Source of the DNA: an uncultured Gammaproteobacteria bacterium
GTDB lineage: Bacteria; Patescibacteriota; Patescibacteriia; UBA9934; GWF2-40-263
NCBI GenBank assembly: GCA_964573855.1
Contig: CAZNKO010000002.1
Location: 1 to 44,810, forward strand
Reading direction: 5' to 3'
DNA: 44,810 nt
Below, in pieces: positions 1-29,190 of the stretch. A model generated the notes under the pieces. That model made no database searches. It was not told where the DNA came from and was given only the letters and a program-made list of their open reading frames with translations. The position numbers and the translations under genes are program-made. Numbering within the stretch: position 1 is the first letter of the stretch; each line of letters starts with the position of its first letter.

Positions 1-1005
1 CGACTCTACAAGCTCCTAACGGAATTTGGTGGCAGAAGTTAGATATTCCCCTTGAGGATTATCGTTCGAAGTTTGAATCCTTGGTGCGCGAGCAGGGGAT
101 CTGGCCGGAGAATTTTAACGAAAATGCAAACAATTCTTCCGGGGAATACCTCTGGGATGTGACCGATGTCCGCGAAAGCTATCAATCCTTCGACCACGCC
201 CGCGATCTTTTTTATTGCTTCATGTGTTTTCATGAGGCAGAGCGACTCGCGTTTTGCGGCGGTTCCCTCGTTTGCAACGACATGATCGGCTCCGTCGTTA
301 ACAGTCGATCTTCAAATTGCAGGTATTGTTATGCCATGGTCGGTTGCCAGAACATGGAATACTCCATGAATTGTTTTAACTGTGAAAATTGTTTTGGCTG
401 TATTGGTCTTCAGAACAAAAAGTTTCATATTTTTAATGTCGCGTATCCAGAGGATGAATATTGGAAGATGGTAGATGAATTGAAATGCGCCATGCTGGAG
501 CGTGGGGAATATGGGGAATCGTTCCCGACCCGTTTTTCCGCCTCTTATTTTTATGAATCAGGAGCGGTCGCGCTTTTCGGGTGCGGAAAGGAGGACGCCG
601 AACAGTTGGGCATTGTTGAGTATGATCCGAACATGAATGGGGCTTCTGGGTACATGGAGGTCGCGAAAGACGTCAAGCGAACGTCCGATGTTCCAGACGC
701 CATAGACGACATGTCCGTGGATGAGTGGGCAGGGGTGCCGATTTTTGATGCAGAAAAAAATAGACAATATTCCTATCTGAAGCCGGAACTTGAGTTTTAT
801 CATCAAAAGCGGATTGCTGCCCCGAACAAGCATTTTATTTACCCGGATTTATGAGCTGACACAGCAGATGAACTCTGCAATTTTTGTTGCAGAAAAATGT
901 TCAAAATGTTCAAAGGCCATTCGGGTTGGAAAATGCTTCGGATATCCGGAACGGACGATCTACTGCCGCCCGTGTTATTTGCAATATCTCGAGACACACA
1001 ATTAA
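1..1005 (+). pseudogene. Cys-rich ~575-aa paralog family, copy 1. The 5' end lies outside the window and the frame is broken by a 1-nt shift near 836-845.
   Basis: Frame 3 is open from nt 3 (..LDIPLEDYRSKFESLVREQGIWPENFN..). It is colinear with the C-terminal half of the full-length paralogs (MEYSMNCFNCENCFGCIGLQNKKFHIFN, KCAMLERGEYGE). It stops after ..NKHFIYPDL (TGA 852-854). The family C-terminus (CSKCSK..YCRPCYLQYLE) continues in the next frame (ORF 790..1005). Confidence 0.6.
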
Positions 1006-1013
1006 TTCTCCAT

Positions 1014-1040
1014 TCTCTAATTCGCGCGAATAGGAGAATA
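1014..1040 (+). promoter_or_regulatory. Copy 1 of 6 of a conserved upstream motif (TTCTCTA-TTCGCGCGAATAGGAGAATA), containing the 14-bp perfect palindrome TATTCGCGCGAATA (1019-1032)
   Basis: Direct comparison with 5152, 28441, 28843, 29149 and 29615. It lies 9 nt upstream of the ATG at 1049. Confidence 0.6.
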
Positions 1041-1048
1041 AGGAAATT

Positions 1049-2776
1049 ATGTCCAAAACACCGAAATTTGATGCGAAAGTAAAAGCCATCCTCGACGCCA
1101 CCAAACCCGGCGAGCGCACGTGCGCGCTCACGGGAGAGAAATGGAACATGACAGATGAAGAAATTGGGTGGTACAAAAAATTCAATGTCCCGCCGTCGAA
1201 GTTCCATCCGGAAATGCGCCGGCGATTATTGTTTGGATTTCCTTCGGGGGTCGCGATTTGGCGGAAGCCGCATATGACTACGAAAGAGCCAATCTTGAGT
1301 TTCGTGCATCCAGACAGTCCGTATCAAGTCGTGACAGATAAGGAATGGGCGGTTGGGGAATATCTTCGGGAAGGTCCGGAGCTCGACGCTTCGCGCCCAT
1401 TTTTTGATCAATTCGAGTCTCTCGCACACGCCGTTCCGGTTTCCGCTTTGCGCGCGGACCCCGCGGACGTGAATACGATCGGTGTCGATACCCTAAAGAT
1501 CGAGGATTCCCAAATGGTGTTCGGGTGCGCGGAAAACAAACGATGTTTTTATCTTTATACTTCGTATCAATGTGAGGATTGCGTGGATATTGCCAACACG
1601 CGACTCACCCAGGATTGTTACGCGATCAACCGATCCAAACAGCTTCATCAATGTCAGTTCGTTTTTGAATCTGCCCAATGCCAGCAAAGCGCGTTTCTCT
1701 TTGACTGCAAAAATCTTGATTATTGTTTCGGTGCAACAAACAAGGTCAACAAGAAATACTTGTGGTTCAATGAACAGCTCACGAAAGAGGAATGGGAAAA
1801 ACGCCGCGCCACGGTGGACCTCTCATCTCGCGCGGTACTCGAGGAATATTATAAGAGATTTTACGATCTTATTGCGAAGGCTGCGTGGCCGCCTTCTTAC
1901 ATCATTGGTTCCGAAGATTGCACGGGAGAATATCTTCAGGAGTCTGTGCGGTGCCATGATTCGTACTGGGTCAATCTAGGTGTGGATTTATATTCCTGCT
2001 TCATGGCCGTGGAGTTCCAGCAGAGCGCTTTTTCCATTTGGATCGGGTGGGGAAGTGACGTGTATTATACGTGCGACCATGTCGGCGGCCCGGTAAAATT
2101 TTGTTTCCGCACGTGGGACTGCACGGACATGGAGTACTCCATGGATTGCCGCAACTGTGAACACTGTTTCGGATGCGCGGGATTAAAGCGAAAAAAGTAC
2201 TGCATTTTCAATGTCCAATACACGCCGGAGGCGTACTGGAAGAAGCTGGATGAAATAAAATGTGCGATGTTGGATCGCGGCGAGTATGGCGAATTTTTCC
2301 CAGCAAAATTTTCCCAGAGCGGTTTCCAATTCTCGATGGGAGATTTGTTTGCTGAATATACACCCGAGGAATACCGTTTGTTTGCGGCCCCGAAATTTGA
2401 TCCGAATCGTGCCGCGGTGCACGCCTCCATGCAGGATGGCGAGGCAGCACTCACCACGGATACGCTTCCGGATCGTCTCGCGGACGCTTCAGAATCTCTG
2501 GTCGGCAAGCCGATTTTTGACAAGAAACTCGGGAGAAATTACAGCATCGCGCCCCTCGAGTGGGCGTTTTACCAGCGCCACAAGCTTGCCATCCCGAGCG
2601 AGCACTTCTTGAGCCGCCTCCGGAATATCGTCCGCACCTCAAACTCACCGGTCAAAATGGCCGCCTCTTGTTCCTCTTGCGGCACAGAAATTACTACTTA
2701 CAAAAACGCAACGTTCCCAAAGCGCAACCTCATGTGCCGCCCGTGCTATCTGAAATATCTTGAAAAAAACAATTAG
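1049..2776 (+). CDS. Cys-rich repeat protein of unknown function, paralog copy 2 (575 aa), with a C-terminal CxxC..CxxC zinc ribbon
   Basis: Long ORF with an ATG start and the motif upstream. Signature blocks: FDCKNLDYCFGATNKVNKKYLWFNEQLTKEEWEKRR, MEYSMDCRNCEHCFGCAGLKRKKYCIFNVQYT, CSSCG..CRPCYLKYLE. Homologous over its full length to 3413..5146 and 5187..6923. Confidence 0.85.
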   Translation: MSKTPKFDAKVKAILDATKPGERTCALTGEKWNMTDEEIGWYKKFNVPPSKFHPEMRRRLLFGFPSGVAIWRKPHMTTKEPILSFVHPDSPYQVVTDKEWAVGEYLREGPELDASRPFFDQFESLAHAVPVSALRADPADVNTIGVDTLKIEDSQMVFGCAENKRCFYLYTSYQCEDCVDIANTRLTQDCYAINRSKQLHQCQFVFESAQCQQSAFLFDCKNLDYCFGATNKVNKKYLWFNEQLTKEEWEKRRATVDLSSRAVLEEYYKRFYDLIAKAAWPPSYIIGSEDCTGEYLQESVRCHDSYWVNLGVDLYSCFMAVEFQQSAFSIWIGWGSDVYYTCDHVGGPVKFCFRTWDCTDMEYSMDCRNCEHCFGCAGLKRKKYCIFNVQYTPEAYWKKLDEIKCAMLDRGEYGEFFPAKFSQSGFQFSMGDLFAEYTPEEYRLFAAPKFDPNRAAVHASMQDGEAALTTDTLPDRLADASESLVGKPIFDKKLGRNYSIAPLEWAFYQRHKLAIPSEHFLSRLRNIVRTSNSPVKMAASCSSCGTEITTYKNATFPKRNLMCRPCYLKYLEKNN

Positions 2777-2795
2777 GTCTGCTAATTTGAGCTAT

Positions 2796-3029
2796 ATGAC
2801 GTATCCGCATATTTCTCGCGACCCAGGCATATTGGGCGGAAAACCAGTGATTGCCGACACGCGTATTTCAGTGGATATGATTTTGGAGTTCCTTTCTTCA
2901 GGCATGTCTGCGAAAGATATCGTGAAGCAGTATCCTCAATTAACCGAGGAATTTATCCGTGAGGCCTTGGCGTACGCGGCTACGGATATCCGGCGTTCCG
3001 AAATTGACTCGATCCGGCTCCCGAGGTAA
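2796..3029 (+). CDS. DUF433-family antitoxin-like protein
   Basis: The sequence MTYPHISRDPGILGGKPVIADTRISVDMILEFL..G.S...I...YP.LT.E.I..AL is the typical DUF433 signature. The ATG at 2796 lies just after the stop of the upstream gene. The ORF-track start at 2760 is a TTG inside the upstream gene. Confidence 0.75.
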   Translation: MTYPHISRDPGILGGKPVIADTRISVDMILEFLSSGMSAKDIVKQYPQLTEEFIREALAYAATDIRRSEIDSIRLPR

Positions 3030-3034
3030 ATCGT

Positions 3035-3406
3035 ATGCGTTTCCTCGCGGACGAAAACGTGGCCGCGGAGGTTGTGCATGCCCTTGCCGAAGCCGGACAC
3101 GATGTGCTTCGCGTTTTTGATGTCATGCCTGGGGCAAGCGATAAAGACGTGCTTCAGCGCGCCTATCAGGAGGCGCGTATTATTTTGACGCATGATCAGG
3201 ATTTCGGAAATGTGCTTCGCTACCCCTTGCATGCCCATCGCGGCATTCTGCTCATGCGATTCAAAGATCAGTCACCCGCAAATGTCATTCGTCATTTAAA
3301 TGCATTGATCGATGAGACGTTTGAGCAGAAGATCCAAAATCGTCTCGTGATTGTCCGTGAGGATCACGTTCGATTTTATTCAGGTGAATCCAATAGTCGA
3401 TCATAA
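3035..3406 (+). CDS. DUF5615/PIN-like (Mut7-C-like) putative toxin, partner of DUF433
   Basis: MRFLADENV...THDQDFG is typical of the PIN-like proteins encoded next to DUF433 genes. It starts 5 nt after the DUF433 stop. Confidence 0.7.
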   Translation: MRFLADENVAAEVVHALAEAGHDVLRVFDVMPGASDKDVLQRAYQEARIILTHDQDFGNVLRYPLHAHRGILLMRFKDQSPANVIRHLNALIDETFEQKIQNRLVIVREDHVRFYSGESNSRS

Positions 3407-3412
3407 TTCAGT

Positions 3413-5146
3413 ATGTCCAAAACTCCGAACTACGATGCAAAAATCAAAGCCATCCTCGACGCCACGCGGCCGGGGGAGCGGACGTGCGCGCTCACCGGTC
3501 AGAAATGGGAACTTACGGCCGGGGAGCTCGAATGGTGCTGGCGATTTCTCGTTCCTCCTTCAACGATCCATCCGTTCGTCCGGATGAAAATACTTTTTGC
3601 TTATAATTCGGCCCTTTCACTCTGGCGCAAGCCGCATGCGATCACGGGCGAACCTATCCTTTCTTATATTCATCCAGACAACCAAGTAAAGGTGGTAACA
3701 GATGCAGAGTGGATGAGTCTCGATCAATCTTCTCAAGGGCGGTCGGTGGATGTGAGCCAGCCGTTTTTTGATCAGTTGTATCAGCGTTACCTTGACACCA
3801 GCTTTCGCGCGCTCGCGACCCCCGGGGATTCCGTGAATACGATCGGATTTGGAATGCACAAGTGTCTCGATAGTTTCATGATTTTTGCTTCTTTGGATAT
3901 CGAACGTTCCTCATACGTGGAGGCCTCGACCTCTGTCAGGGATTCGGTTGATGTGACGAATTCCCTTGGTGGTATCGCGGAGAGTTCCAGTATTAATCGT
4001 TGTCGTTCTCTCTATAACTGTCATGTTGCGTTTGAGTGCCATGACTGTCTCAATTCCTGGTTTTTGTTTGATTGTCGAAATTGCGAGTACTGTTTCGGCG
4101 CGACGAATCAGAGGAACAAAAAGTACCTTTGGTTCAATGAGCAACTGACGAAAGAAGAATGGGAGCGGCGGCGAGAGGCCGTCGGCCTTTCGTCCTATGC
4201 GATTTTTGAACGCGAACGCAAACGTTTTTTCGATCTGGTTGCTGGATCCGTCTGGCCGGAAACGTTTAATATCGCCGCGGGCGCATCCACTGGGGAATAT
4301 CTCGAGGAAACCGTCCGTGTCCTGGAAGGATACCAATTGCAGAAAGTTACGGACTGCTTTCGTGTGTGGTTCGCGGTCGGCAGTTCAGATTGTGCCTATC
4401 AGACCGGTTCCGGATTCGGGTCGGAAATTTGGCAGACGAGCGGGGCCGCCTATTCCCAAAACGTAAAGTTCTCACACAATCTCACCAGATGCGAAGACGT
4501 TGAATACTGTGTGGCGTGCATGAACTGCTCCCATTGTTTTGGTTGCGTGAATTTGAATCGGAAACAGTATTGCATTTTGAACAAGCAGTATACGGAACAG
4601 GATTATTGGCGGACGTTGGACGATCTTAAATGCGTCATGCTGGAGCGCGGGGAATACGGTAAATCCGTTCCCGGTAAGATGAGCATTGTTGGTATGCCGT
4701 TTTCCGCCGCCGCACTACTGCTAGGAATCTCCAAAGAGGAGATTGAATTATTTGGCGGTGAAATCTATGACGCGAAACGCGGTATGTCGTATATGCCGGC
4801 CGAAGTCGACCCTGGTCACCGGTTAACGCCCGAGGCTCTCCCGGACCGTCTTGAGGACGCGACGGGGCTTGTGAATCGGGCGGTCTGGGATCCCGCGGCT
4901 GGCCGTTCGTATCCGATCATGCCGCGCGATTTTGATTTTGCGGAGCGTCATCATCTTCCCCTCCCGCGAAAGCATTTCCTCTCCCGATTGCAAGAGCTGA
5001 ATCTTCTTTCCAATGTTCCCGAGACGATAGATAGGGCGTGTGCTTCCTGCGGCAAGGGGATCAAAGTTTACCGGAATAACACGTTTTCCACGCGCCGGGT
5101 CTTGTGTGAGGCATGTTATCTCGCGTATCTTGAATCGCGCGGTTGA
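3413..5146 (+). CDS. Cys-rich repeat protein of unknown function, paralog copy 3 (577 aa)
   Basis: Full-length homolog of 1049..2776, with an identical block NKKYLWFNEQLTKEEWERRR, VEYCVACMNCSHCFGCVNLNRKQYCILNKQYT and a C-terminal CASCG..CEACYLAYLE. It starts 6 nt after the PIN-like stop and has no copy of the upstream motif. Confidence 0.85.
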   Translation: MSKTPNYDAKIKAILDATRPGERTCALTGQKWELTAGELEWCWRFLVPPSTIHPFVRMKILFAYNSALSLWRKPHAITGEPILSYIHPDNQVKVVTDAEWMSLDQSSQGRSVDVSQPFFDQLYQRYLDTSFRALATPGDSVNTIGFGMHKCLDSFMIFASLDIERSSYVEASTSVRDSVDVTNSLGGIAESSSINRCRSLYNCHVAFECHDCLNSWFLFDCRNCEYCFGATNQRNKKYLWFNEQLTKEEWERRREAVGLSSYAIFERERKRFFDLVAGSVWPETFNIAAGASTGEYLEETVRVLEGYQLQKVTDCFRVWFAVGSSDCAYQTGSGFGSEIWQTSGAAYSQNVKFSHNLTRCEDVEYCVACMNCSHCFGCVNLNRKQYCILNKQYTEQDYWRTLDDLKCVMLERGEYGKSVPGKMSIVGMPFSAAALLLGISKEEIELFGGEIYDAKRGMSYMPAEVDPGHRLTPEALPDRLEDATGLVNRAVWDPAAGRSYPIMPRDFDFAERHHLPLPRKHFLSRLQELNLLSNVPETIDRACASCGKGIKVYRNNTFSTRRVLCEACYLAYLESRG

Positions 5147-5151
5147 TCTCC

Positions 5152-5179
5152 ATCTCTAATTCGCGCGAATGGTAGAATA
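5152..5179 (+). promoter_or_regulatory. Upstream motif copy 2 of 6 (ATCTCTAATTCGCGCGAATGGTAGAATA). Palindrome ATTCGCGCGAAT at 5159-5170; TGgTAGAAT resembles an extended -10.
   Basis: Direct sequence comparison. It ends 8 nt before the ATG at 5187. Confidence 0.6.
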
Positions 5180-5186
5180 AGAAGAT

Positions 5187-6923
5187 ATGAGCAAAACCTC
5201 GAACTACGACGCAAAAGTAAAAGCCATCCTCGACGCCACGCACCCGGGGGAGCGGGTTTGCGCGCTCACGGGAGAGAAGTGGATGATGGATGAGCGCGAA
5301 ATTGGTTGGTACAAAAAATTTAACGTCCCGCCGTCGAAGTACAGTCCCTTTACGCGCATTAAAGCAATGGCCGCGTATTTTATTTTGTTTGACATCTGGT
5401 ACAACAAACATGCGGAAACAGGAAAACCGATCATCAGCAATATCCATCCCGCGACCGGTATCCGCGTCCTTCCGGATGAAGACTGGTTTGGACGAGACTT
5501 TTCTGACCTTTCTCTTGCTTTGGATCTCCAGAAACCATTTTTTCAACAATTGTACCGTTTAAGCCGGATGGTTCCCCGCGCGGCCGGATACAATCCGGTG
5601 AAGCCGGAACGTTCCATTGCGTTCATTTCTTTCGGAGACGAAGATAGTTATTTTGTTCTCGCGTGTCGTTCCAAGCGCAGCGTCTACTGCATCAACGGGT
5701 TCGATGTTGAGGATAGCGCGGAGTTGGATGCCGTAAATTCTGCCCGACGTTCTTATAACGTTATTTATTCCGATCGTGTCTATCAATGTAAATTCATCCG
5801 AGAGTCGCGGGACGTTCAATTCTCTTCCTTCTTGTTCGATTGTCGCAATTGCGAATATTGCTTTGGCGCCACGAACCAACGCAATAAAAAATATCTCTGG
5901 TTCAACGAGCAACTCTCAAGAGAGGAATGGGAACGTCGCGTTGCTGCCGTCGACCTTGCTTCGTTTGCCGTCCGTCAGGAGTATGAAAGGAAATTCCATG
6001 AACTGGTGAGCAAGGCTATTTGGCCTGAAAATTTTAACATCAACAGTCCCGGGTGTACGGGGGAGTATTTGACGGATTGCGTGGACGTGAAGGAGAGCTA
6101 CAATGCTCGGGGGGCGAGAGACGCGGAATACATTTGCTATTCCATTGGCCCATCGCACGATCTGTATTATGCAAGCGGAAATGCGGACGCCTCCGATTGT
6201 TATTACGGGGTCGGTTTTCACTATACGAGTCAAAGCAAATTTTCCCTTTCGATTACCCAACGGTGCCTCGGGGTGGAGTATTGCGAGAGCTGTTATGATT
6301 GTTCGTATTGTTTTGGACGTGTTGGATTACAAAGGAAGTCGTTTTGCATTCTGAACAAGCAATACACGGAGGCGGAGTATTGGAAGACCGTCGATGCCTT
6401 GAAGTGTGCGATGCTCGATCGGGGGGAATATGGTGAAGCGGCGCCAGCCTATTTTTCAACGCAACATTGGCCAGGATCAGGAGCCACGACGATCTATGAG
6501 GCAACGGAAGAGGACGCGCGAAGATTGCGTGCGGCGCAATTTCAGGCGTCGGACGACGACGCGGAAGGTCCACCAGTAGACCAAACAAAAATTCGCAACG
6601 TGGAAAGCATGCCAGACCGTGTGGCAAATGAGAGCATTGACAGTCTTGTTAGGGTTCCGTTTTTGGACCCAAAGATGGGTCGGCGGTTTTCGTATCTTAA
6701 ACCAGAGCTTGAGCTGTATCAGAAATTGGGGGTTGCCCCGCTGAGGCGGCATCCGACGGGATGCATCCATGATCTCTATCGCGAAATGAATCGGCCGATT
6801 TTTCACGAAACGACATGCGCGAAGTGCGGGAAGGGGATTCGGGTCGCGGATAATCAGGCGTATCCGAAGCGAATCATCTATTGTCAGCTCTGCTATTTGA
6901 GGTATCTTGAAGAGCGTGGATGA
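5187..6923 (+). CDS. Cys-rich repeat protein of unknown function, paralog copy 4 (578 aa)
   Basis: Full-length homolog of copies 2 and 3 (FDCRNCEYCFGATNQRNKKYLWFNEQLSREEWERR, VEYCESCYDCSYCFGRVGLQRKSFCILNKQYT, CAKCG..CQLCYLRYLE). Confidence 0.85.
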   Translation: MSKTSNYDAKVKAILDATHPGERVCALTGEKWMMDEREIGWYKKFNVPPSKYSPFTRIKAMAAYFILFDIWYNKHAETGKPIISNIHPATGIRVLPDEDWFGRDFSDLSLALDLQKPFFQQLYRLSRMVPRAAGYNPVKPERSIAFISFGDEDSYFVLACRSKRSVYCINGFDVEDSAELDAVNSARRSYNVIYSDRVYQCKFIRESRDVQFSSFLFDCRNCEYCFGATNQRNKKYLWFNEQLSREEWERRVAAVDLASFAVRQEYERKFHELVSKAIWPENFNINSPGCTGEYLTDCVDVKESYNARGARDAEYICYSIGPSHDLYYASGNADASDCYYGVGFHYTSQSKFSLSITQRCLGVEYCESCYDCSYCFGRVGLQRKSFCILNKQYTEAEYWKTVDALKCAMLDRGEYGEAAPAYFSTQHWPGSGATTIYEATEEDARRLRAAQFQASDDDAEGPPVDQTKIRNVESMPDRVANESIDSLVRVPFLDPKMGRRFSYLKPELELYQKLGVAPLRRHPTGCIHDLYREMNRPIFHETTCAKCGKGIRVADNQAYPKRIIYCQLCYLRYLEERG

Positions 6924-7060: not shown

Positions 7061-7756
7061 ATGCAAGAACATATTATATTCAAAACATCTGATGGTATCG
7101 AAATCGTTGGTGATTATTACGCTTCGGGCCCTTCGACAAGCTCAGGGCCTAACGGCAAGTTTGCAATTCTTCTCCACATGATGCCGGCAACGAAGGAGAG
7201 CTGGAAGCCGTTTGCCGCGAAACTTGTCGCAAAGGGTTACGATGTGCTCGCGATCGACGAGCGCGGGCATGGGGAGAGCACTATGGGTGGCACATTGGAT
7301 TACAAAAAATTTGGCGAGGCTGAACAGCAGGCAAAAATTTTAGACGTTGAGGCTGCATTTGAGTTTCTAAAAGGGAACCCTTCGACAAGCTCAGGGCCAA
7401 GGGGGGCGACGGAGAAGAACACGGTTTTGGTCGGCGCGTCGATTGGCGCGAATCTCACGATCCAATTTTTGACCATGCATCCAGGCGTGGCCGTCGGCGT
7501 TGCGCTTTCGCCTGGATTGAATTACCGCGGGGTGACGACCGATGATAAAATCACGAAGCTCCATTCGGGACAGAAAATCGTTTTGGTCGCGAGCGACGAC
7601 GATGATCGTGATTCGGCCGCGAGTTGCCGCGAGCTTCATAGATTAAATGAGGTGCAGACGGTTTTGATTGAAAAGAATGGTCTCGGGCACGGCACGACCA
7701 TGTTCGAGCGGGATCCGAAATTGATGGATGAGATGATTAACTATCTGTCATTCTGA
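7061..7756 (+). CDS. Alpha/beta hydrolase fold protein (231 aa) carrying two in-frame PSTSSG repeat insertions
   Basis: Nucleophile elbow GASIG and a C-terminal GLGHG. The overall pattern matches the dienelactone-hydrolase/alpha-beta hydrolase type. Confidence 0.7.
   Translation: MQEHIIFKTSDGIEIVGDYYASGPSTSSGPNGKFAILLHMMPATKESWKPFAAKLVAKGYDVLAIDERGHGESTMGGTLDYKKFGEAEQQAKILDVEAAFEFLKGNPSTSSGPRGATEKNTVLVGASIGANLTIQFLTMHPGVAVGVALSPGLNYRGVTTDDKITKLHSGQKIVLVASDDDDRDSAASCRELHRLNEVQTVLIEKNGLGHGTTMFERDPKLMDEMINYLSF
7129..7147 (+). repeat. Short type-A element CCCTTCGACAAGCTCAGGG, in-frame in the CDS (PSTSSG)
   Basis: Exact string repeated at 7378. Near-identical copies at 10522 and 20543. Confidence 0.8.
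7378..7396 (+). repeat. Short type-A element CCCTTCGACAAGCTCAGGG, in-frame in the CDS (PSTSSG)
   Basis: Exact copy of 7129..7147 within the same gene. Confidence 0.8.
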
Positions 7757-7813: not shown

Positions 7814-8290
7814 ATGTCTTGGAAAGAAGCCGTTCTCGTCTTTGGGGCCGAATATCTGGTGTATGTCCAAGCGCTTGCAACGCTGGTTTTTGCTTGGCTT
7901 CAGCGCCGGATCATTCGCGCGACGTTTTTTGCCTACGCGATCGTGAGCGGAGTCCTCGCTTTTGCCCTGTCTCGTCTCGCCGGGCTTCTCTACAACAATC
8001 CTCGGCCGTTTGTCGTTGAAGGGTTTACGCCGCCGATTCCGCACGCGCCGGATAACGGATTCCCATCGGATCACACGCTTCTTGCCGCTTGGCTCGCAGC
8101 GCTTGTGATGCCGTATGACCGGCGGCTCGGAACGATCCTCGCGATCGGCGCGCTTTTGGTCGGATTCTTTCGAGTCGCGGCCGGCGTCCATCACATGGTT
8201 GATATCATCGGATCCATCGTGATTGTGACTGTCTCGGCTCTTTCTACCTTCTACTTTCTACCTTCTACCCGCCGTCTATGGCAGAAATGA
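7814..8290 (+). CDS. PAP2-superfamily phosphatase (membrane protein, BcrC/undecaprenyl-diphosphatase-like)
   Basis: PAP2 motifs NNPRPF, PSDHT and RVAAGVHHMVD, plus hydrophobic segments. Confidence 0.75.
   Translation: MSWKEAVLVFGAEYLVYVQALATLVFAWLQRRIIRATFFAYAIVSGVLAFALSRLAGLLYNNPRPFVVEGFTPPIPHAPDNGFPSDHTLLAAWLAALVMPYDRRLGTILAIGALLVGFFRVAAGVHHMVDIIGSIVIVTVSALSTFYFLPSTRRLWQK
8242..8269 (+). repeat. Heptanucleotide tandem array (TTCTACC/TTCTACT) x4
   Basis: ttctacc ttctact ttctacc ttctacc. It lies in the 3' tail of the PAP2 gene, immediately upstream of the HD gene start at 8278. Confidence 0.8.
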
Positions 8291-9630
8291 TCGAAGTTCG
8301 CGATCCGATCCATCGGCGCATTCCCTTTGACGAATTTGAGCGACGGGTGATTGATCACCCGTTTTTTCAGCGCTTGCGTTTCATCTCCCAGCTTTCTTTC
8401 TTGATGTCCTACGTCTACCCGGGCGGCGTGCATGACCGATTTTCGCACGGTCTCGGAGCGATGCATGTCGCTGGACGCTTGTTCGGGCGACTTCTCGCGA
8501 GCTCACCGCTTCTTTCCTCCAGATTTTCTCCGGAAGAAATTGAAGCCCTCCGCCGCCGCATGCGGCTTGCGGGGTTGCTCCACGACATAGGCCATGGCCC
8601 ATTCTCCCACGCGTCCGAGACGATTTTTCCGAAATTTCGCGATCTTCCGATGGATTGGTCGTGGTGGAACCCTTCGACTCCGGCCGGTTATCCCCTGAGC
8701 AACGTCGAAGGGCTAACCGGCCTCCGCTCAGGGAATAATAGACAGTCTAAGCATGAAGATTACAGCGTGCTTTTGATCCAAACGCTCGCGAAGGAAGGCG
8801 TGCTTGCCGAAGATCTTGCCCAAGACGTGGCGTCGCTTATTCACGGAGATGTCGTGCCGTCCGCGACATTTACGGGGTTGGAAAGACAAGCGCCGACTCT
8901 CCAAAAAATTTTGAAATCCCTCGTCTCGGGCGAAGTAGATTGCGACCGGATGGATTATCTTCTGCGTGACAGCTATTACTGCGGCGTCGCCTATGGCACG
9001 TTCGATCTCGATTGGCTCATTTCCAGTCTCGGCCTTGCAGAACAAGACGGGAAGTTTCTTCTCACGCTTTCGGAAAACGGCGTGCGTGCCTTTGAGGACA
9101 CGCTCCTCGCGCGCTACCACATGATCGATCAGGTTTATTTCCACAAAACCAAAGCCGGCTTTACGCATTACCTTGAGGAGGCGATTCGGACAAAGGAAGC
9201 GGATCTCACCATTCCGACCGATCCCTACGCCTATGCAGGCCTTCGGGACGGGCAGGTGATCGAGAAACTTTTCGCGGCGGCGAAAGACGAAAAGAATTAC
9301 TGGTCGCACCATTTGATGCGGCGGATTCCGGCGAAGCGGATTTTGCGGTTCCAGACCGCGAAGGCGGAAGATCGAGAGACATTAAAAAAGCTCGAAGAGA
9401 TTTGTCAAAAGAACAATATCCGTTTTTTTACCCACGCCGCGTCAAAGGAATTAACATTTCTCGGGGAAGGATCAAGCGCAGACAGCATTCAGGTTGCCAA
9501 GAAAACCATCGACGGTGTTCGCTATGTGCCGGTGTTTCAGTACTCGGATCTTCTTCAAAAATATCACGAGAAACTTCAGTTCACGGATTTTTTTGTGCTC
9601 CGCGAGGACGCAGAAAAATTTGAAAACTAG
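8278..9630 (+). CDS. HD-domain phosphohydrolase (COG1078/SAMHD1-like dNTP triphosphohydrolase family)
   Basis: HD motifs FSHGLG and LLHDIGHGPFSH, plus GEVDCDRMDYLLRDSYYCGV. It overlaps the preceding gene by 13 nt. Confidence 0.8.
   Translation: MAEMIEVRDPIHRRIPFDEFERRVIDHPFFQRLRFISQLSFLMSYVYPGGVHDRFSHGLGAMHVAGRLFGRLLASSPLLSSRFSPEEIEALRRRMRLAGLLHDIGHGPFSHASETIFPKFRDLPMDWSWWNPSTPAGYPLSNVEGLTGLRSGNNRQSKHEDYSVLLIQTLAKEGVLAEDLAQDVASLIHGDVVPSATFTGLERQAPTLQKILKSLVSGEVDCDRMDYLLRDSYYCGVAYGTFDLDWLISSLGLAEQDGKFLLTLSENGVRAFEDTLLARYHMIDQVYFHKTKAGFTHYLEEAIRTKEADLTIPTDPYAYAGLRDGQVIEKLFAAAKDEKNYWSHHLMRRIPAKRILRFQTAKAEDRETLKKLEEICQKNNIRFFTHAASKELTFLGEGSSADSIQVAKKTIDGVRYVPVFQYSDLLQKYHEKLQFTDFFVLREDAEKFEN
8670..8733 (+). 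repeat. Long (64-bp) type-A palindromic element inserted in-frame in the HD gene (PSTPAGYPLSNVEGLTGLRSG)
   Basis: It has the same termini as the short copies (CCCTTCGAC...GCTCAGGG). Internal inverted pairs: CCCTTCGAC/GTCGAAGGG, CCGGTTA/TAACCGG, CCCTGAGC/GCTCAGGG. Confidence 0.75.
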
Positions 9631-10063: not shown

Positions 10064-11335
10064 ATGCCAAAAGCCAAAAGCCAGAAGCCAAAAGCTAGCC
10101 CTGAGCGAAGTCAAAGGGTTCTTGTCGGCATGTCCGGCGGCGTGGATTCGTCCGTGTCCGCGGCATTGTTGTTGGAGGTTGGGTATGAGGTGATTGGCGC
10201 GTTCATGAAAAATTGGTCCGGACAGAAATGTGCGGATGGGTCGTTTAAAGAATGTGGGTGGCGCGACGAGCGGCGGGATGCCATGCGCGTGGCATCCACA
10301 CTCGGGATTCCGTTTGTGACGCTCGATTTTGAGGAACAGTATCGGCGCGATGTGGTTGAGAACATGTTCCGTGAGTTTGAAGCGGGCCGCACGCCGAATC
10401 CGGACGTGATGTGCAACAAGTTCATCAAATTTGATCGATTCGTGAAGGCGGCAGATGGGCTTGGATGTCAATTTGTCGCGACAGGACATTATGCCCGCAT
10501 ATTCCCCGAGCCTGTCGAGGGGCCTTCGACAAGCTCAGGCAATAATTTTCGTATCCTCATGGGCTCTGACCCAAACAAAGACCAAACCTATTTCCTCTGG
10601 GCCATGCCGCCCGCCGTTTTGTCGCGCGTGTTGTTTCCGGTTGGCGGCATGATAAAGGCGGATGTGCGAAAGAAAGCGCGTGAGCTTGAGCTTTCCACTG
10701 CTGACAAAAAAGACAGCACCGGCATTTGTTTTGTTGGGGAAGTGGACAGGCGTGAATTTTTGCAGGGGGGCATTCCGGAAGATCCAGGCGGGATTGTGAC
10801 GACCGAGGGAGAGATTGTCGGCCAGCATTCTGGGGTCGCGTTTTATACGATCGGCCAGCGCCACGGGCTCAACGTCGGTGGCGGCACGCCCTATTATGTT
10901 GTGGAGAAAAAACCAGCGACAAAACAGTTGGTCGTCTCAAGCAATTTTCATCCAGCCCTGTTCAAAAAAGAGTTAACGGCGATCCAATGCAACTGGTTCC
11001 GCGATCTTTCGCGTCCCCCTTTTCAAGGGGGACTACAGGGGGTTACCGGTGCATCGGCAACCCCTCCTCACCTCCCCTTGGAAAGGGGAGGAAGTACATT
11101 CCGCTGTCAGGCGCGGATTCGTTATCGCCAGCCTGTTGCGCCATGTACCGTGACCATTCTCCCCCTTTTTCCGCCAGAGGCGGATCCCGCTCTGCGGGAC
11201 AAGGGGGAGCCAGAGGGGGTTGCCGGTGATCGTGTCCACGTCCATTTTGACGGCCCCCAGCGCGCCGTCACCCCCGGCCAGTCCATTGTGTTTTATCAAG
11301 ACGACGAAATGCTGGGCGGGGGTGTGATAGAATGA
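10064..11335 (+). CDS. mnmA: tRNA-specific 2-thiouridylase MnmA, carrying three in-frame repeat insertions
   Basis: PP-loop motif VGMSGGVDSS, a central DQTYFL block and a C-terminal AVTPGQSIVFYQDDEMLGGGVIE. Confidence 0.9.
   Translation: MPKAKSQKPKASPERSQRVLVGMSGGVDSSVSAALLLEVGYEVIGAFMKNWSGQKCADGSFKECGWRDERRDAMRVASTLGIPFVTLDFEEQYRRDVVENMFREFEAGRTPNPDVMCNKFIKFDRFVKAADGLGCQFVATGHYARIFPEPVEGPSTSSGNNFRILMGSDPNKDQTYFLWAMPPAVLSRVLFPVGGMIKADVRKKARELELSTADKKDSTGICFVGEVDRREFLQGGIPEDPGGIVTTEGEIVGQHSGVAFYTIGQRHGLNVGGGTPYYVVEKKPATKQLVVSSNFHPALFKKELTAIQCNWFRDLSRPPFQGGLQGVTGASATPPHLPLERGGSTFRCQARIRYRQPVAPCTVTILPLFPPEADPALRDKGEPEGVAGDRVHVHFDGPQRAVTPGQSIVFYQDDEMLGGGVIE
10066..10100 (+). repeat. Heptanucleotide tandem array (GCCAAAA-like) x5 at the 5' end of mnmA
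   Basis: gccaaaa gccaaaa gccagaa gccaaaa gctagcc, encoding the N-terminal tail PKAKSQKPKAS. Confidence 0.75.
10522..10540 (+). repeat. Short type-A element (GCCTTCGACAAGCTCAGGC), in-frame in mnmA (PSTSSG)
   Basis: Matches the copies at 7129 and 7378 except at the terminal bases. Confidence 0.75.
11014..11091 (+). repeat. Palindromic repeat element (type C) in-frame in mnmA (..PPFQGGLQGVTGASATPPHLPLERGG..)
   Basis: Three consecutive hairpins: TCCCCCTT ttc AAGGGGGA; GGGGTTaCCG gtgcat CGGcAACCCC; CCTCCCCTT gga AAGGGGAGG. It shares the AGGGGGTTNCCG module with 11157 and 24946. Confidence 0.7.
11157..11226 (+). repeat. Palindromic repeat element (type B) in-frame in mnmA (ILPLFPPEADPALRDKGEPEGVAG)
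   Basis: TTCTCCCCCTTTTTCCGCCAGAGGCGGA..CTCTG..CAAGGGGGAG..AGAGGGGGTTGCCGG. An intergenic copy lies at 24946..25014. Confidence 0.75.
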
Positions 11336-25982: not shown

Positions 25983-26780
25983 GTGGAAAAAAAACCTGTT
26001 ATTTATACAAAACCGGAGCTCATCGCGAAACTCAAAGAGATTTCGATGATGGGATTTGTACCGAATGCGCGTCGTGGAAACGCGGGAGGTATCGGCAACA
26101 CGCTTGAGGACCTTCTTGGTATCGAGGAAAATAATTTGCCGATACCGAACGCCGCGGAATGGGAACTAAAAACACAACGAATCAACACAATGTCTCTCAC
26201 AACGCTTTTTCACATGGAGCCATCCCCGCGCGCCGTTGGGTTTGTGCCGCAAGTATTTTTACCCAAATATAGTTGGTCACACGAGGAAGCTGGGCACAGA
26301 TACCCAAAGAGTGAGATGAGCTTTCGGCAGACGATCCATGGCCGATCACGGAGTGATCGCGGTTTTATGGTTGTGATTGACCGTAAGGCGCAGAAGATTT
26401 TGGTTTCATTTGATGCAGGAAGTGTTGATATTCGACATAAGGCATGGCTTGAATCCGTCAAAAAGCGTGTGGGACTTGGCGAACTTAACCCGCAACCCTA
26501 TTGGGGTTTTGATGATTTGGAACATAAAGCTGGAACAAAACTTCTCAATACTTTCTATGTTCAAGCTGATGTGAAAGTTGAACGGAGAAAAGAATCCTAT
26601 CATTACAAAAAAGTAATGATGTTGCAAAAATTCAGCTTTGATGTATTTTTGAAAGCGTTGGAGGAGGGAAAAATTTTGGTGGACTTCGATGCTCGCACCG
26701 GACACAACCACGGCACAAAATTCCGCATGCGGCAGGATTGTTTGCCGATGTTGTATGAAAAAGCAACCAGTGTCATATAA
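25983..26780 (+). CDS. Type II restriction endonuclease, MvaI/BcnI family
   Basis: Colinear with my recollection of BcnI: ..ELIAKLKEI..GFV, LEDLLGIEENN..IPNAAEWELKTQR...SLTTLFH, and C-terminal ILVDFDARTG.NHGTKFRMR...LP.LY. The GTG at 25983 is 5 nt after the methyltransferase stop. Confidence 0.7.
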   Translation: MEKKPVIYTKPELIAKLKEISMMGFVPNARRGNAGGIGNTLEDLLGIEENNLPIPNAAEWELKTQRINTMSLTTLFHMEPSPRAVGFVPQVFLPKYSWSHEEAGHRYPKSEMSFRQTIHGRSRSDRGFMVVIDRKAQKILVSFDAGSVDIRHKAWLESVKKRVGLGELNPQPYWGFDDLEHKAGTKLLNTFYVQADVKVERRKESYHYKKVMMLQKFSFDVFLKALEEGKILVDFDARTGHNHGTKFRMRQDCLPMLYEKATSVI

Positions 26781-26806
26781 AAGTCAGATAAATAATTTAT
26801 ATCCAT

Positions 26807-26841
26807 GTCAAAAAATGCCTTAAAATAAGGCATTTTTTGAC
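26807..26841. terminator. Bidirectional intrinsic terminator
   Basis: GTCAAAAAATGCCTT aaaat AAGGCATTTTTTGAC: a perfect 15-bp stem with A/T tracts on both sides. Confidence 0.8.
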
Positions 26842-26966
26842 TCTTAACTTTTTAACGAGTTTGTTTATTCTATAACTACCTCGACAGTAAATGGCCTCTT
26901 GCATTGTATTTTTAGGTGAAAAACGTTATGATATTTAATAAAGTAATAAATTAAGCATTAAATCGT

Positions 26967-27320
26967 ATGGACAAAAACGCCGAAATAATACTCAAAATTG
27001 AGGTCCTACTTGGACACCTTAAACAATCATTGGGGACAAAGACTTCTTCTGAAAAGAAGCATGGAGCGAAAGGATTGGATGGGATAAGCCGGATAAATTT
27101 TTTAGGCTTAACCAAGGAGATTTTTGATTTAGTTCAGGAGGGCTACTTCAAAGAACCGAGAACCATTTCAGAAATTAAAAAAAAATTGCATCAAAGAGCA
27201 GTGAATAAGCCCACAACATCTCTAATGAGACCCTTGCGTCTGCTCATACGCAAAAGAATTATTGAGCGCGAGAAACCCGACGGAAAAGGTCATTACAAAT
27301 ATTTTCAAGTAAATCAATAA
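26967..27320 (+). CDS. Small putative winged-helix protein, paralog 1 of 3 (117 aa)
   Basis: The C-terminal half (F.LVQEGYF.EPRTISEIKKKL....VNKPTTSLMRPLRLLIRKRIIEREKPDGKGHYKYFQV) aligns with 27322..27672 and 27685..27939. Confidence 0.55.
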   Translation: MDKNAEIILKIEVLLGHLKQSLGTKTSSEKKHGAKGLDGISRINFLGLTKEIFDLVQEGYFKEPRTISEIKKKLHQRAVNKPTTSLMRPLRLLIRKRIIEREKPDGKGHYKYFQVNQ

Positions 27321-27321
27321 T

Positions 27322-27672
27322 ATGAAAAAAGACCCACAAAAAATCGCCGCACAAATTATGGAACTTGTATCAGAACTTGTCACACTCGTGGGTGTACCCA
27401 TAGTTCATAGGTCAGCAAAGCCGCACAAATCACCTGCGAGTGAGAAAAGAGATATGTCCGGCGCCACTGGAGGTATTCGTTGGTTGGTTGAGGAAGGAAA
27501 GCTGGATTCACCAGAACAGTTATCCGAAATTATGGAATTTTTGCGGCAAGAAGGCAGACACTATTCTCGACCAACCATCTCGATGGGGTTATTGAACTTG
27601 GTGCGCGAAAGGGTTTTGACGCGATTCCACGACAAAGGAGATAAAAATTGGAAATACGTTATTCGAAAATAG
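27322..27672 (+). CDS. Small putative winged-helix protein, paralog 2 of 3 (116 aa)
   Basis: IRWLVEEGKLDSPEQLSEIMEFLRQEGRHYSRPTISMGLLNLVRERVLTRFHDKGDKNWKYVIRK. It starts 1 nt after the paralog 1 stop. Confidence 0.55.
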   Translation: MKKDPQKIAAQIMELVSELVTLVGVPIVHRSAKPHKSPASEKRDMSGATGGIRWLVEEGKLDSPEQLSEIMEFLRQEGRHYSRPTISMGLLNLVRERVLTRFHDKGDKNWKYVIRK

Positions 27673-27684
27673 TTATAACGAATT

Positions 27685-27939
27685 ATGTCGGCAAAAAGTC
27701 TGAAAGACAAGGCAAGCCAGCTCTCGCTTCAAGGCGGCAGTAAACACGAATTGATACAAAAGCTCATTGTCAACGGATTTTTTGACACACCCAAAATGAC
27801 AGGTGAGCTTATTTTGGAGGTTTGTCAAACTTTCGGAAAGAGGTTGCGATCAAATGAGATACAAACTTACATGAAAAAGTTCATGGAGGCGGCCATTATA
27901 CGGGCTGTTCACGATAAGCAGAGCAGGGGTAATTTTTGA
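27685..27939 (+). CDS. Small putative winged-helix protein, paralog 3 of 3. It ends at a TGA that is in-frame with the next ORF.
   Basis: LIQKLIVNGFFDTPKMTGELILEVCQTFGKRLRSNEIQTYMKKFMEAAIIRAVHDKQSRGNF*. The stop falls where paralogs 1 and 2 have Y/W. Confidence 0.5.
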   Translation: MSAKSLKDKASQLSLQGGSKHELIQKLIVNGFFDTPKMTGELILEVCQTFGKRLRSNEIQTYMKKFMEAAIIRAVHDKQSRGNF

Positions 27940-27951
27940 ATACTAGCCAGT

Positions 27952-28428
27952 ATGGATAAATCGAAAGCGGCACAGCTTATTGGCAAAAGCAAGAAAGTTC
28001 AAGAAATAGAGCACGACCTTTTTTCAGATGGCCTGCTCAAAAAATTTGGAAAGGACTTTGGTGTTGAGTTTACTGATTTACAATACAATTTCGATAGAAG
28101 CGGAACGTGTACGGCATTTCTTCTGCGGAAGATTCTGGAGAAGCTGATTTATCTTGCTTTTGCCAAGCACGGTGTTGGATCAAAATTAGAGGATAAGACA
28201 CGGGCTGGTCGTCTAGTTGGTCTCGAATCCATGATGAGCATTGCCGTTTCGGAAAAGATTAGCGGTGTGCCATTTTTGACCTCCAAAACGGCAAAAGAAA
28301 TTCAAGGCATTAAATTTTTAGGAGACGCGGCTGCACATAATCCACTAACCAACGTAGAGATGAGGACTATCATACCGCAAATGCCTTTCATTATTACCGC
28401 ATTTGAAGAAGTGGCAAAGAAGATGTAA
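27952..28428 (+). CDS. DUF4145-like protein (158 aa). It may be the C-terminal part of a fusion with 27685..27939.
   Basis: IQGIKFLGDAAAHNP resembles the R/K-x2-G-N/D-x-A-A-H signature of DUF4145. It shares a reading frame with the upstream ORF, separated by TGA plus four sense codons. Confidence 0.45.
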   Translation: MDKSKAAQLIGKSKKVQEIEHDLFSDGLLKKFGKDFGVEFTDLQYNFDRSGTCTAFLLRKILEKLIYLAFAKHGVGSKLEDKTRAGRLVGLESMMSIAVSEKISGVPFLTSKTAKEIQGIKFLGDAAAHNPLTNVEMRTIIPQMPFIITAFEEVAKKM

Positions 28429-28440
28429 TTTATAAAGGTA

Positions 28441-28468
28441 TTCTCTAATTCGCGCGAATGGTAGAATA
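28441..28468 (+). promoter_or_regulatory. Upstream motif copy 3 of 6 (TTCTCTAATTCGCGCGAATGGTAGAATA)
   Basis: Matches 5153..5179 over 27 nt (TCTCTAATTCGCGCGAATGGTAGAATA). Palindrome at 28448-28459. It ends 20 nt before the ATG at 28489. Confidence 0.6.
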
Positions 28469-28488
28469 GTTACGGATGCGCATTTATT

Positions 28489-28836
28489 ATGGCTACAAAA
28501 CGAAAGAAAGGAATGTCTAAATATTTATTGACCTATCTTTGCCAGAAATGCGGTATGGATTTTGGGGTGTCGGATATACACACACCGAAATGTTTTTACT
28601 GCGGTTCCAAACGAGGACACGAACTTGTGAAAAAACAAAAGATCACTCCACAGGTTTTGGCGGAACGGATGAAATTAGTGACTGACCGGATGATCGAAAA
28701 TCTTAAAAAGGCTTATAACGTAAGGCCTGCCGATACCGATGAGGATGAATTGCTCGAAGTTTTGGTAAAGGCGGATAAACTGCGCAGAGGCGTGAGGCGT
28801 CTTCCATTCAAACGTGGAAAACATTTGGCATCGTAA
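28489..28836 (+). CDS. Small zinc-ribbon protein (115 aa)
   Basis: CQKCG..(13 aa)..CFYCG four-Cys ribbon near the N-terminus, followed by a helical, charged C-terminal half. Confidence 0.55.
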   Translation: MATKRKKGMSKYLLTYLCQKCGMDFGVSDIHTPKCFYCGSKRGHELVKKQKITPQVLAERMKLVTDRMIENLKKAYNVRPADTDEDELLEVLVKADKLRRGVRRLPFKRGKHLAS

Positions 28837-28842
28837 GGCATA

Positions 28843-28870: not shown

Positions 28871-28900
28871 GTTGGCCGGGTTGTAGTAGTCTTGAAGGAT

Positions 28901-29170
28901 ATGAAAGAGAAGGAAATGGAGCGGGTCCTCAAGGCCCTGGCCAATCGACGGCGTCTCGCCATTGTGAGATATTTGAAACGCACCAGAGAGGCGACGGTGG
29001 GGGATATCGCGGACGAGATTAGGCTTTCGTTCAAAGCGACGTCGAAACATCTCGGCGTCCTTTATGCCGCAGATATCGTGGATCGGGAACAGCGAAGCTT
29101 GCAGATGTGGTATCGTCTCGTCCCCAATCTTCATCCCGTTGCAAAACATATCTCTAATTCGCTCGAATAG
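28901..29170 (+). CDS. ArsR/SmtB-family winged-helix transcriptional regulator (89 aa, no Cys)
   Basis: LKALANRRRLAIVRYLKRTREATVGDIADEIRLSFKATSKHLGVLYAADIVDREQRSLQMWYRL is the canonical ArsR HTH_5 pattern. ATG 28901 is preceded by GAAGGA. The ORF-track start at 28814 overlaps the upstream gene and the motif. Confidence 0.8.
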   Translation: MKEKEMERVLKALANRRRLAIVRYLKRTREATVGDIADEIRLSFKATSKHLGVLYAADIVDREQRSLQMWYRLVPNLHPVAKHISNSLE

Positions 29171-29177: not shown

Positions 29178-29190
29178 GTTCGAGTGTCCT

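Follow-up and report, generated by a model that had tools for sequence, protein, structure and literature searches.

The window analyzed here, i.e. the whole 44,810-nt stretch of contig CAZNKO010000002.1 (GenBank assembly GCA_964573855.1), begins inside a tandem gene array. Open reading frame (ORF) listing and translation placed four same-strand, head-to-tail paralogs of approximately 575 amino acids (aa) each at positions 1–6923. These belong to a protein family distributed across the Candidate Phyla Radiation (CPR, or Patescibacteria), members of which are repeatedly encoded next to type IV coupling protein (T4CP)-like ATPases. The genes and features of the array are as follows:

1..1005, + strand: copy 1; 5′ end cut by the contig start; frame 3..854, with the putative C-terminal zinc module in frame 838..1005
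831..840, + strand: frameshift site of copy 1; one extra nt (A) near 837 in the run CATTTTATTT, read directly
1049..2776, + strand: copy 2; 575 aa, intact
2760..3029, + strand: DUF433 antitoxin-like gene (PF04255, E 6e-24); overlaps the end of copy 2; within the array
3035..3406, + strand: DUF5615/PIN-like toxin-like gene (PF18480, E 3e-26; PIN_10, E 1e-6); within the array
3413..5146, + strand: copy 3; 577 aa, intact
5187..6923, + strand: copy 4; 578 aa, intact; final gene of the array

The tandem paralogs had been noticed in an earlier sequence-only reading of the window, and ORFs, translation and alignment agree that all four are real. The head-to-tail tandem arrangement described there holds for the common strand of the genes, but not for their continuity: a DUF433 and DUF5615/PIN-like pair of the toxin-antitoxin type splits the array between copies 2 and 3 (2760..3406), and copy 1 is both truncated and frameshifted. 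At equivalent positions of arrays in other genomes, Bro-N, NYN, AbiEii and TrmB genes were found; it seems that insertions are either tolerated in the arrays or drawn to them.

The family hidden Markov model (HMM) aligned to copy 1 in two segments (3–854 to HMM positions 264–525, and 790–1005 to positions 514–578). When one A of CATTTTATTT is removed, the translation runs ...KHF-FTRIYELTQQMN... and aligns with HFLSRLRNIVRTSN of copy 2. The frame 838..1005 reads FTRIYELTQQMN...CSKC...CRPCYLQYLETHN up to the stop codon, which leaves the predicted zinc-finger C-terminus intact. The frameshift could be that of a pseudogene or an assembly error; programmed frameshifting is less likely. Split or frameshifted family copies recur in other loci (L009, L018, L024, L025, L049 and L072). 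A broken copy 1 fits a birth-and-death pattern, an assembly error being another possibility.

This frameshift and the metagenomic source of the contig are the only pointers to an explanation in which the assembly has wrongly multiplied a single gene, as the sequence-only reading had considered. In a four-way alignment, amino acid identity was 45.5% between copies 2 and 3, 40.4% between copies 2 and 4, 40.9% between copies 3 and 4, and 32–39% between copy 1 and the others. Since the copies are only 32–46% identical, the array cannot be an assembly-induced duplication of one gene. Similar arrays are present in many independent assemblies, the family being carried on 0.3–0.6 Mb contigs with arrays and on complete chromosomes of 1.0–1.3 Mb, and the probability of an artefact is negligible.

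A word-indexed search yielded 814 matches, all annotated as “hypothetical” and mostly from Candidatus (Ca.) Uhrbacteria and Patescibacteria, several of them sharing a genome. In an exhaustive search of representatives with a 49-sequence profile, 3,762 clusters (50% identity) were found at E ≤ 1e-3 and 1,521 at E ≤ 1e-30. The more distant members, of approximately 550 aa, are Cys-complete, and the only name given to them in UniRef is “Zinc-binding domain-containing protein”. One distant member (P0251, 731 aa) carries an N-terminal GNAT acetyltransferase domain, the sole domain fusion seen.

A scan of GTDB species representatives detected the family in Uhrbacteria-type metagenome-assembled genomes (MAGs) and in Kerfeld-, Peri-, Peregrini-, Gracili-, Abawaca-, Nomura-, Staskawicz- and Harrisonbacteria, as well as in Paceibacterota. 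HMM annotation revealed tandem arrays in all fetched loci, with 2–11 copies per locus (6 in L001, at least 8 in L003); the maximum was 9 per 21-kb locus in Uhrbacteria and 11 per locus (L080) in other CPR classes. When loci were summed by contig-accession prefix, single MAGs were found to contain at least 25 (JBDRLV), approximately 16 (CAYZPO), 15 (JAZDEQ) and 14 (UBA10169), and in another case approximately 11 copies. The expansion suspected from the window is thus strong, amounting to 11–25 or more copies per Uhrbacteria-type MAG, with arrays across CPR classes. Uhrbacteria-type arrays were also present in MAGs titled “uncultured Gammaproteobacteria” (L009, L015, L019, L029, L031, L036, L050 and others), and CPR-type loci in records titled Bdellovibrionota, Chlamydiae, Bulleidia and Alphaproteobacteria; these oddly titled records are probably mislabelled or contaminated bins.

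The same arrays were used to judge the age of the paralogs. Almost every copy in 13 primary arrays has a closer counterpart in another genome than among the neighbors in its own array. Copy 2 of the window shares 53% identity with its best match elsewhere, compared to 45% with its best array neighbor; for copy 4 the corresponding values are 58% and 41%, its best orthologues being 56–58% identical. Orthologues in other genomes are thus more similar than array neighbors, so that the paralogs of the array are old and have been maintained separately; they are not the product of a recent diversifying burst or of ongoing homogenization. The diversification to which the sequence-only reading had pointed was not borne out as a recent one.

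Database searches gave no family for the core of these proteins, as expected from their first description as uncharacterized. Nothing above threshold was found for the window copies in Pfam and NCBIfam (the match of copy 3 to GLEYA, E 0.15, lies far under the cut-off), and copy 2 had no match under E 0.1 among PDB sequences. In PDB searches with a single sequence and two profiles, only the C-terminal finger was matched, to LIM domains and S27e; profile positions 516–549 aligned with residues 30–66 of 1ctl, the second zinc finger of a LIM domain (E 7e-4). The C-terminal 35 aa of relatives match the treble-clef models zf_Tbcl_2 (PF23477) and TIGR04272. For PF23477 (E 2e-6 to 4e-4; cut-off 27 bits), relative P0183 scored 27.8 bits and other relatives 20–22 bits; every relative scored below the TIGR04272 cut-off of 36 bits. 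The window copies gave no match to either model at E ≤ 1, and neither they nor the relatives matched Pfam LIM or Hexapep. No match to PADLOC-DB 2.0 was obtained with copies 2 and 4 and P0183, and a search of PHROGs with copies 2 and 4 returned no more than a single match, at E 0.0073. A phage origin was rejected, viral contigs having given just one partial match, at a contig end. A literature search on the family returned nothing relevant, and only a survey of type IV secretion systems (T4SSs) touches the neighboring genes (PMC12102498). No model of the core domains exists in Pfam, NCBIfam, PADLOC or PHROGs, and the sequences are public but unnamed.

The part of the family protein that aligns with the CxxC-x17-CxxC domain of PF23477/TIGR04272 and with the second LIM finger (CRP1, 1ctl/1b8t) is the C-terminal CxxC-x18-CxxC with its ...VYC..CY.K motif. 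This match spans only approximately 6% of the family protein, and the domains termed S below are without counterpart. Whereas a LIM domain consists of two consecutive fingers (C2HC plus C4/C2HC, approximately 55 aa), the family aligns to the second finger only and is half a LIM at most.

AlphaFold models of copy 2 and of the Cys-complete relative P0183 were confident overall, with predicted local distance difference test (pLDDT) values of 84 and 85, and predicted template modeling (pTM) scores of 0.83 and 0.86, respectively. The S regions of both models showed lower pLDDT (60–79) and almost no DSSP-assigned structure. Foldseek comparison of both models with the PDB gave best E values of 1.8–2.9, with no assignable fold; in BFVD, the best match of the copy 2 model was a zinc-ribbon protein at a non-significant E of 0.03. 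For the 1049..2776 product, structure prediction and Foldseek thus yielded no fold match to a characterized family.

Comparison of alignment slices with hhalign revealed the layout A-S-S′-acidic linker-A′, in which A and A′, and likewise S and S′, are homologous. Profile-profile comparison of S1 with S2 gave a probability of 99.2% (E 2.6e-19) in Uhrbacteria and 100% (E 1.5e-39) in Cys-complete relatives; for the N-terminal against the C-terminal module the values were 89% and 99.8% (E 2e-28), respectively. In copy 2 the parts lie as follows:

about aa 18–115: N-module A
about aa 115–270: S1
about aa 270–420: S2
about aa 420–480: acidic linker
about aa 480–575: C-module A′, with the C-terminal CxxC-x18-CxxC

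The domain description given in the sequence-only reading, with its internal duplication and C-terminal zinc ribbon, is borne out by these comparisons and by the zinc-finger model matches. The copy 2 C-terminus reads CSSC-x18-CRPC, i.e. two CxxC knuckles. The termini of the proteins are basic (pI 9–10) and the core acidic (pI 4.7–5.5), and neither a signal peptide nor a transmembrane segment was found in family proteins. This protein architecture has no described relative.

The distribution of Cys was analyzed in 413 family members aligned to one HMM. The terminal modules contain four all-or-none Cys quartets, in columns 6/9/34/37, 56/59/77/80, 471/474/499/502 and 521/524/542/545 (co-occurrence phi 0.67–1.0), the last of which is near invariant (Cys in 89–100% of members). 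Such all-or-none quartets have the look of Zn(Cys)4 sites, of which they are a signature. A and A′ are predicted to be basic zinc-finger modules, each composed of a zinc ribbon and a LIM-like treble clef, and we infer their zinc occupancy from this pattern. In the Uhrbacteria subfamily, to which the window copies belong, the last quartet was kept and the other three were lost, CxxC...F.I being replaced by CALTGEKW and similar sequences.

A different pattern was observed in the S domains, where, along a stretch of approximately 90 positions, every third residue is one of Cys, Ser, Val, Ile, Leu and Ala. The autocorrelation in S1 was 0.5–0.7 at lags that are a multiple of 3 (decaying in S2), compared to about -0.26 at other lags. 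Cys occupancy was just 25–60% per column. Pairwise or quartet co-occurrence of ladder Cys was absent among the 413 members, in which odd and even Cys counts were equally common. Both S domains end in a conserved CxxCxxCxxC-x8-C motif (CxNCxxCFGC..L..K.YCI). Because of their 25–60% occupancy, their exchange with Ser and aliphatic residues and their lack of co-occurrence, the ladder Cys are judged not to be metal ligands; with the exception of the end motif, most of the “Cys-rich” positions appear to be an interchangeable, inward-facing ladder. The label “Cys-rich”, used in the sequence-only reading, stands for a Cys content of 4.0–5.4% in the window copies (4–7% across proteins, with 23–40 Cys each), and most of the individual positions are exchangeable with Ser or aliphatic residues.

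The residue ladder suggests that the S domains are a beta-solenoid-like repeat of a new sequence type. They share periodic small or aliphatic, inward-type residues with left-handed beta-helix acyltransferases, gamma-carbonic anhydrases and the Tenebrio antifreeze protein. They differ from these in a period of 3/6 with equally spaced Cys/Ser and aliphatic residues, rather than an [LIV]-[GAED]-x2-[STAV]-x hexapeptide, and in the absence of catalytic motifs; every match was non-significant (Foldseek E ≥ 1.8, HMM E ≥ 1.6). The non-significant Foldseek tail of the P0183 model consists mostly of left-handed beta-helix proteins (E ≥ 1.8, probability ≤ 0.03), and the profile matches to the Tenebrio antifreeze protein 1ezg reached only E 1.6 and 8.

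These observations bear on whether the proteins serve in metal or redox stress, i.e. in metallothionein-like storage or buffering of zinc or iron-sulfur under ArsR/SmtB-type control. Such a function would account for 23–40 Cys per protein, for the conserved cluster closing each S domain and for the ArsR-type HTH_5 genes directly 5′ of sub-arrays in L001 and L002. It is at odds with a Cys content of only 4–7%, below that of metallothionein-like storage proteins, and with S-domain Cys that swap freely with Ser, Val and Ile and are not co-conserved as pairs or quartets. The Uhrbacteria copies are, moreover, without three of the four terminal quartets, and the ArsR-like protein of the window (28901..29170) has, on inspection, no Cys or obvious metal site. 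The “metal handling” expectation of the sequence-only reading is weakened, and we regard this function as very unlikely.

The array is followed in the window by genes that form a conserved flank:

7061..7756, + strand: alpha/beta hydrolase; conserved flank downstream of the array
7814..8290, + strand: PAP2 phosphatase; relatives have BacA at that position
8278..9630, + strand: HD-domain protein; conserved flank
10064..11335, + strand: MnmA tRNA 2-thiouridylase; conserved flank

In Uhrbacteria-type genomes the corresponding slot, on one strand, has the order SecD-SecF-DUF8128-T4CP-T4CP-[family × 2–9]-(alpha/beta hydrolase)-BacA-(HD)-MnmA. The window represents the 3′ part of this slot, with four copies, hydrolase, PAP2, HD, MnmA and Era. 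Since the start of the contig falls within the array, the T4CP genes ahead of it are deduced from relatives: in 15 Uhrbacteria-type loci T4CP-like genes precede the array, and several of these loci continue into the downstream flank seen in the window. The same DUF8128-T4CP-T4CP block lies ahead of the array in a Kerfeldbacteria genome. A single-copy gene syntenic with housekeeping genes had been named in the sequence-only reading as an argument against novelty. The array is indeed syntenic, but the family is multi-copy everywhere and its novelty stands. The operon-like link to T4CP genes had been missed in that reading, the contig starting inside the array.

The neighboring ATPases match the Pfam models TrwB_AAD_bind, T4SS-DNA_transf, TraG-D_C and DUF87, and DUF8128 is a membrane protein. 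The phage family PHROG 5156 (824 positions) aligned with the DUF8128-like protein at positions 80–357 and with the T4CP-like ATPase at positions 402–806 (L001:71-5123; L004:181-5981), which suggests that the two proteins are halves of one membrane-anchored, coupling-protein-like unit.

The association extends beyond Uhrbacteria. Among 77 family-seeded loci of other CPR classes (Peribacteria, Gracilibacteria, Nomura-, Staskawicz- and Abawacabacteria, and Paceibacterota), 33 contain a T4CP-like gene, which is directly adjacent to a family gene in 23. The chance expectation is approximately 3% per ~16-kb locus, as calculated from approximately two T4CP genes per genome (PMC12102498) and an assumed genome size of ~1 Mb. 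In several loci (L081, L083, L100 and L126–L128) the T4CP genes are interleaved with the family (T4CP-family × 3-T4CP). When all sets were considered, 50 of the 53 adjacent T4CP/family pairs shared a strand, and the median gap was approximately 55–60 nt. TrmB-type and ArsR-type regulators are common inside or beside the arrays.

We propose, with a probability of roughly 40%, that the proteins are alternative clients (substrates or adaptors) of the adjacent T4CP-like ATPase, a physical or functional coupling that we infer from gene context. The four genes of the window are the 3′ part of a conserved operon-like array and encode predicted soluble cytoplasmic proteins of a CPR-wide family, which may work with the upstream-encoded T4CP-like (VirD4/TrwB/HerA-type) ATPase and its DUF8128 membrane partner. 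The conserved terminal zinc modules could serve as a common handle, docking either on the ATPase or on some other partner, be it protein or nucleic acid, and the divergent solenoid surfaces and the linker would give each old paralog a specificity of its own.

A known arrangement with which this can be compared is that of Legionella DotL with DotN and IcmSW. T4CPs are hexameric ATPases, and the partners and substrates of DotL are of many kinds, some partners being zinc-binding. The likeness lies in a T4CP-type ATPase gene beside soluble partners, some of them zinc-binding; DotN, IcmS and IcmW have no sequence or fold similarity to the family. The candidate partners in CPR bacteria also differ in forming one family of 2–25 paralogs of fixed length. 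A further difference from DotL systems is that CPR T4CPs are mostly located far from virB4 channel genes (PMC12102498).

Several observations weigh against the proposed coupling. In a T4CP-seeded scan, a family gene was found beside the T4CP in only 12 of 80 loci (from Peri-, Peregrini-, Abawaca-, Daviesbacteria and others). No family gene was located within 10 kb of the T4CP in the Saccharibacteria-labelled loci (49 of the 80), and none in the T4CP loci of Magasanik-, Buchanan- and Dojkabacteria. Many arrays are located at other sites of the genome, away from any T4CP. Since most T4CP-seeded loci are without the family, the ATPase, broadly conserved among CPR bacteria, can do without it, and the family is at most an accessory partner of the ATPase, in some classes. 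Part of the adjacency could be inherited synteny. In addition, the T4CP of Ca. Southlakia epibionticum was reported to be non-essential for epibiotic growth (PMC12102498). In loci where the family is missing, genes of 550–640 aa beside T4CPs were considered as hidden divergent members and rejected (hmmsearch --max E > 0.2, few Cys). In a block conserved in many of the Saccharibacteria-labelled loci (L164–L215), a protein of ~800 aa is followed by a sigma70-like protein of ~350 aa and a T4CP of ~900 aa, with no family member nearby; the corresponding block in other CPR classes is SecDF-DUF8128-T4CP.

The same facts lend some weight to a second explanation, in which the proteins act on their own, as scaffolds or regulators that bind nucleic acids or proteins; their basic zinc-finger ends would bind RNA or DNA, and their T4CP neighborhood would be inherited gene order. 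The terminal modules are indeed of basic zinc-ribbon and treble-clef types, T4CPs occur without the family in Saccharibacteria, many arrays are away from T4CPs, and the sigma70-like-DUF8128-T4CP and SecDF-DUF8128-T4CP blocks belong to the conserved core synteny in their own right. Inheritance does not readily explain why the adjacency recurs, including interleaving and same-strand gaps of ~55 nt, although gene order is poorly kept between CPR classes; nor was any known nucleic-acid-binding domain detected. Independent scaffolds are an unlikely explanation, which nevertheless follows the proposed coupling in our ranking.

The proteins might also leave the cell. According to this explanation, they would be translocated effectors or surface proteins fed by the T4CP-like ATPase to an export channel, acting on a host or as adhesins, with the Cys ladder disulfide-bonded outside and the paralogs forming a repertoire for different hosts. 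A basic C-terminus is found in some T4SS substrates. The C-terminal module of the family is basic (pI 9–10), T4CP adjacency is present even though a signal peptide or transmembrane segment is absent, and the 3/6/12-spaced Cys/Ser ladder recalls the disulfide-laddered Tenebrio antifreeze beta-helix, to which the match is as poor as stated above. Divergent tandem paralogs linked to type IV secretion-related genes also have a precedent in the variable-number VirB2 arrays of Patescibacteria T4SS loci (PMC12102498); VirB2 proteins are small membrane pilins encoded near virB4, whereas the family consists of unrelated, soluble 575-aa proteins encoded beside T4CPs. Unlike fast-evolving effector repertoires, the paralogs are old and length-conserved, with orthologues across genomes. 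The lack of pairwise co-occurrence of ladder Cys, with odd counts as common as even ones, speaks against obligate disulfides, and CxxC...CxxC zinc sites are typical of cytoplasmic proteins. The rarity of Patescibacteria T4CPs near virB4 is a further argument against effectors, which we consider rather improbable.

A variant dispenses with the channel: the orphan T4CP-like ATPase and DUF8128 would constitute a stand-alone translocon, with the family as its dedicated cargo, pumped to the surface or into a host cell. The cargo would consist of acidic, rod-like, solenoid-like proteins, possibly resembling DNA in shape and charge, with zinc-finger handles and one target per paralog. This putative translocation role is conceivable but quite improbable.

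An anti-phage or conflict system, with the array and the HerA/T4CP-like ATPase acting together and the paralogs as a sensor repertoire, was also weighed, defence having been among the expectations of the sequence-only reading. The neighboring ATPases match the PADLOC mad8 model (E 1e-16) and HerA models, and array copies are separated in places by inserted toxin-antitoxin, AbiEii, NYN and Bro-N genes. The family itself, however, has no PADLOC match, and viral contigs are all but devoid of it; its locus belongs to the syntenic core instead of forming a variable island, and the paralogs are old. The defence expectation has no support from PADLOC, and the odds against a sensor repertoire are heavy, slightly more so than against metal storage.

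With regard to the coding sequences themselves, a 20-mer is exactly repeated near the 5′ end of three copies:

1082..1101, 3446-3465 and 5220-5239, + strand: AAAGCCATCCTCGACGCCAC, exact; codons K-A-I-L-D-A-T

With the codon usage of the window, the chance that one further copy repeats the six codons of KAILDA is approximately 0.003, and because of this low probability per copy the triple identity is more than a chance event. Synonymous-codon identity was moderately raised in the first 60 codons (54–68%, compared to 30–50% elsewhere). Among 120 family members from Uhrbacteria-type loci L001–L075, codon preference was observed at the I-L-D-A motif (codons 14–17; 1088–1099): Leu is encoded by CTC in 61% (14% in gene bodies), Asp by GAC in 70% (32%) and Ile by ATC in 48% (30%). 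Of the two causes offered in the sequence-only reading, gene conversion or selection at the nucleotide level, recent conversion was rejected as the main one, synonymous identity being only moderately raised and orthologues closer than paralogs; the preference seen across the 120 members points to a codon or nucleotide preference at the motif. Pairing of the CCTC of the 20-mer with the Shine-Dalgarno sequence as a hairpin was likewise rejected (folding of positions -35..+64 in three copies, z -0.5 to +1.0).

A second short sequence is located upstream of two of the array genes:

1017..1031, + strand: motif CTAATTCGCGCGAAT; contains a palindrome; 18 nt 5′ of the copy 2 start codon
5156..5170, + strand: second copy of motif CTAATTCGCGCGAAT; 17 nt 5′ of the copy 4 start

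The motif, CTAATTCGC[G/T]CGAAT, includes a perfect palindrome, ATTCGCGCGAAT, and is itself followed by a GAATA(G/A) box. On the + strand it occurs at 1017, 5156, 28445, 28847, 29154 and 29619, and over both strands the window contains 7 matches, compared to 0.24 expected. Each is located 15–55 nt 5′ of a start codon, including those of copies 2 and 4 and of the ArsR-like helix-turn-helix (HTH) gene 28901..29170. The motif is probably a shared operator or promoter element. Near-identical motifs lie ahead of family genes in L001.

The region at approximately 26000–30400 has a GC content of 0.41–0.45, compared to ~0.53, and contains several small genes, including those for a 115-aa zinc-ribbon protein, the ArsR-like HTH protein and a 257-aa CxxC protein; four are preceded by the palindromic motif. 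This low-GC stretch may be an acquired island. In addition, the spacers between array genes in L008, L020, L024 and L029 contain genome-specific, repeated hairpin-forming sequences, which differ between genomes (e.g. GTGAATAGTGACCGGTCGGTCACTATTCACGG in L024, and GACAGGC...GCCTGTC and GACACCC...GGGTGTC in L029).

CPR/Patescibacteria genomes of ~1 Mb discard most non-essential genes, and Uhrbacteria keep 11–25 or more of these 1.7-kb copies, up to roughly 4% of a 1-Mb genome. For structural biology, the family offers a new repeat architecture, in which a duplicated domain with a triplet Cys/Ser ladder, possibly a solenoid, lies between duplicated predicted zinc-finger modules. A survey of 2,918 Patescibacteria genomes recorded 5,713 VirD4-like T4CPs, i.e. 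approximately two per genome; with only 148 near virB4, almost none lies beside a secretion channel, and their role was left open (PMC12102498). The family is a concrete candidate partner for these ATPases, and the operon-like link makes the question of T4CP function testable. The finding concerns a T4CP-type ATPase and the new class of proteins associated with it. If the proteins were the cargo of this ATPase, it would represent a new protein-export pathway with its own class of substrates, specific to episymbiotic bacteria.

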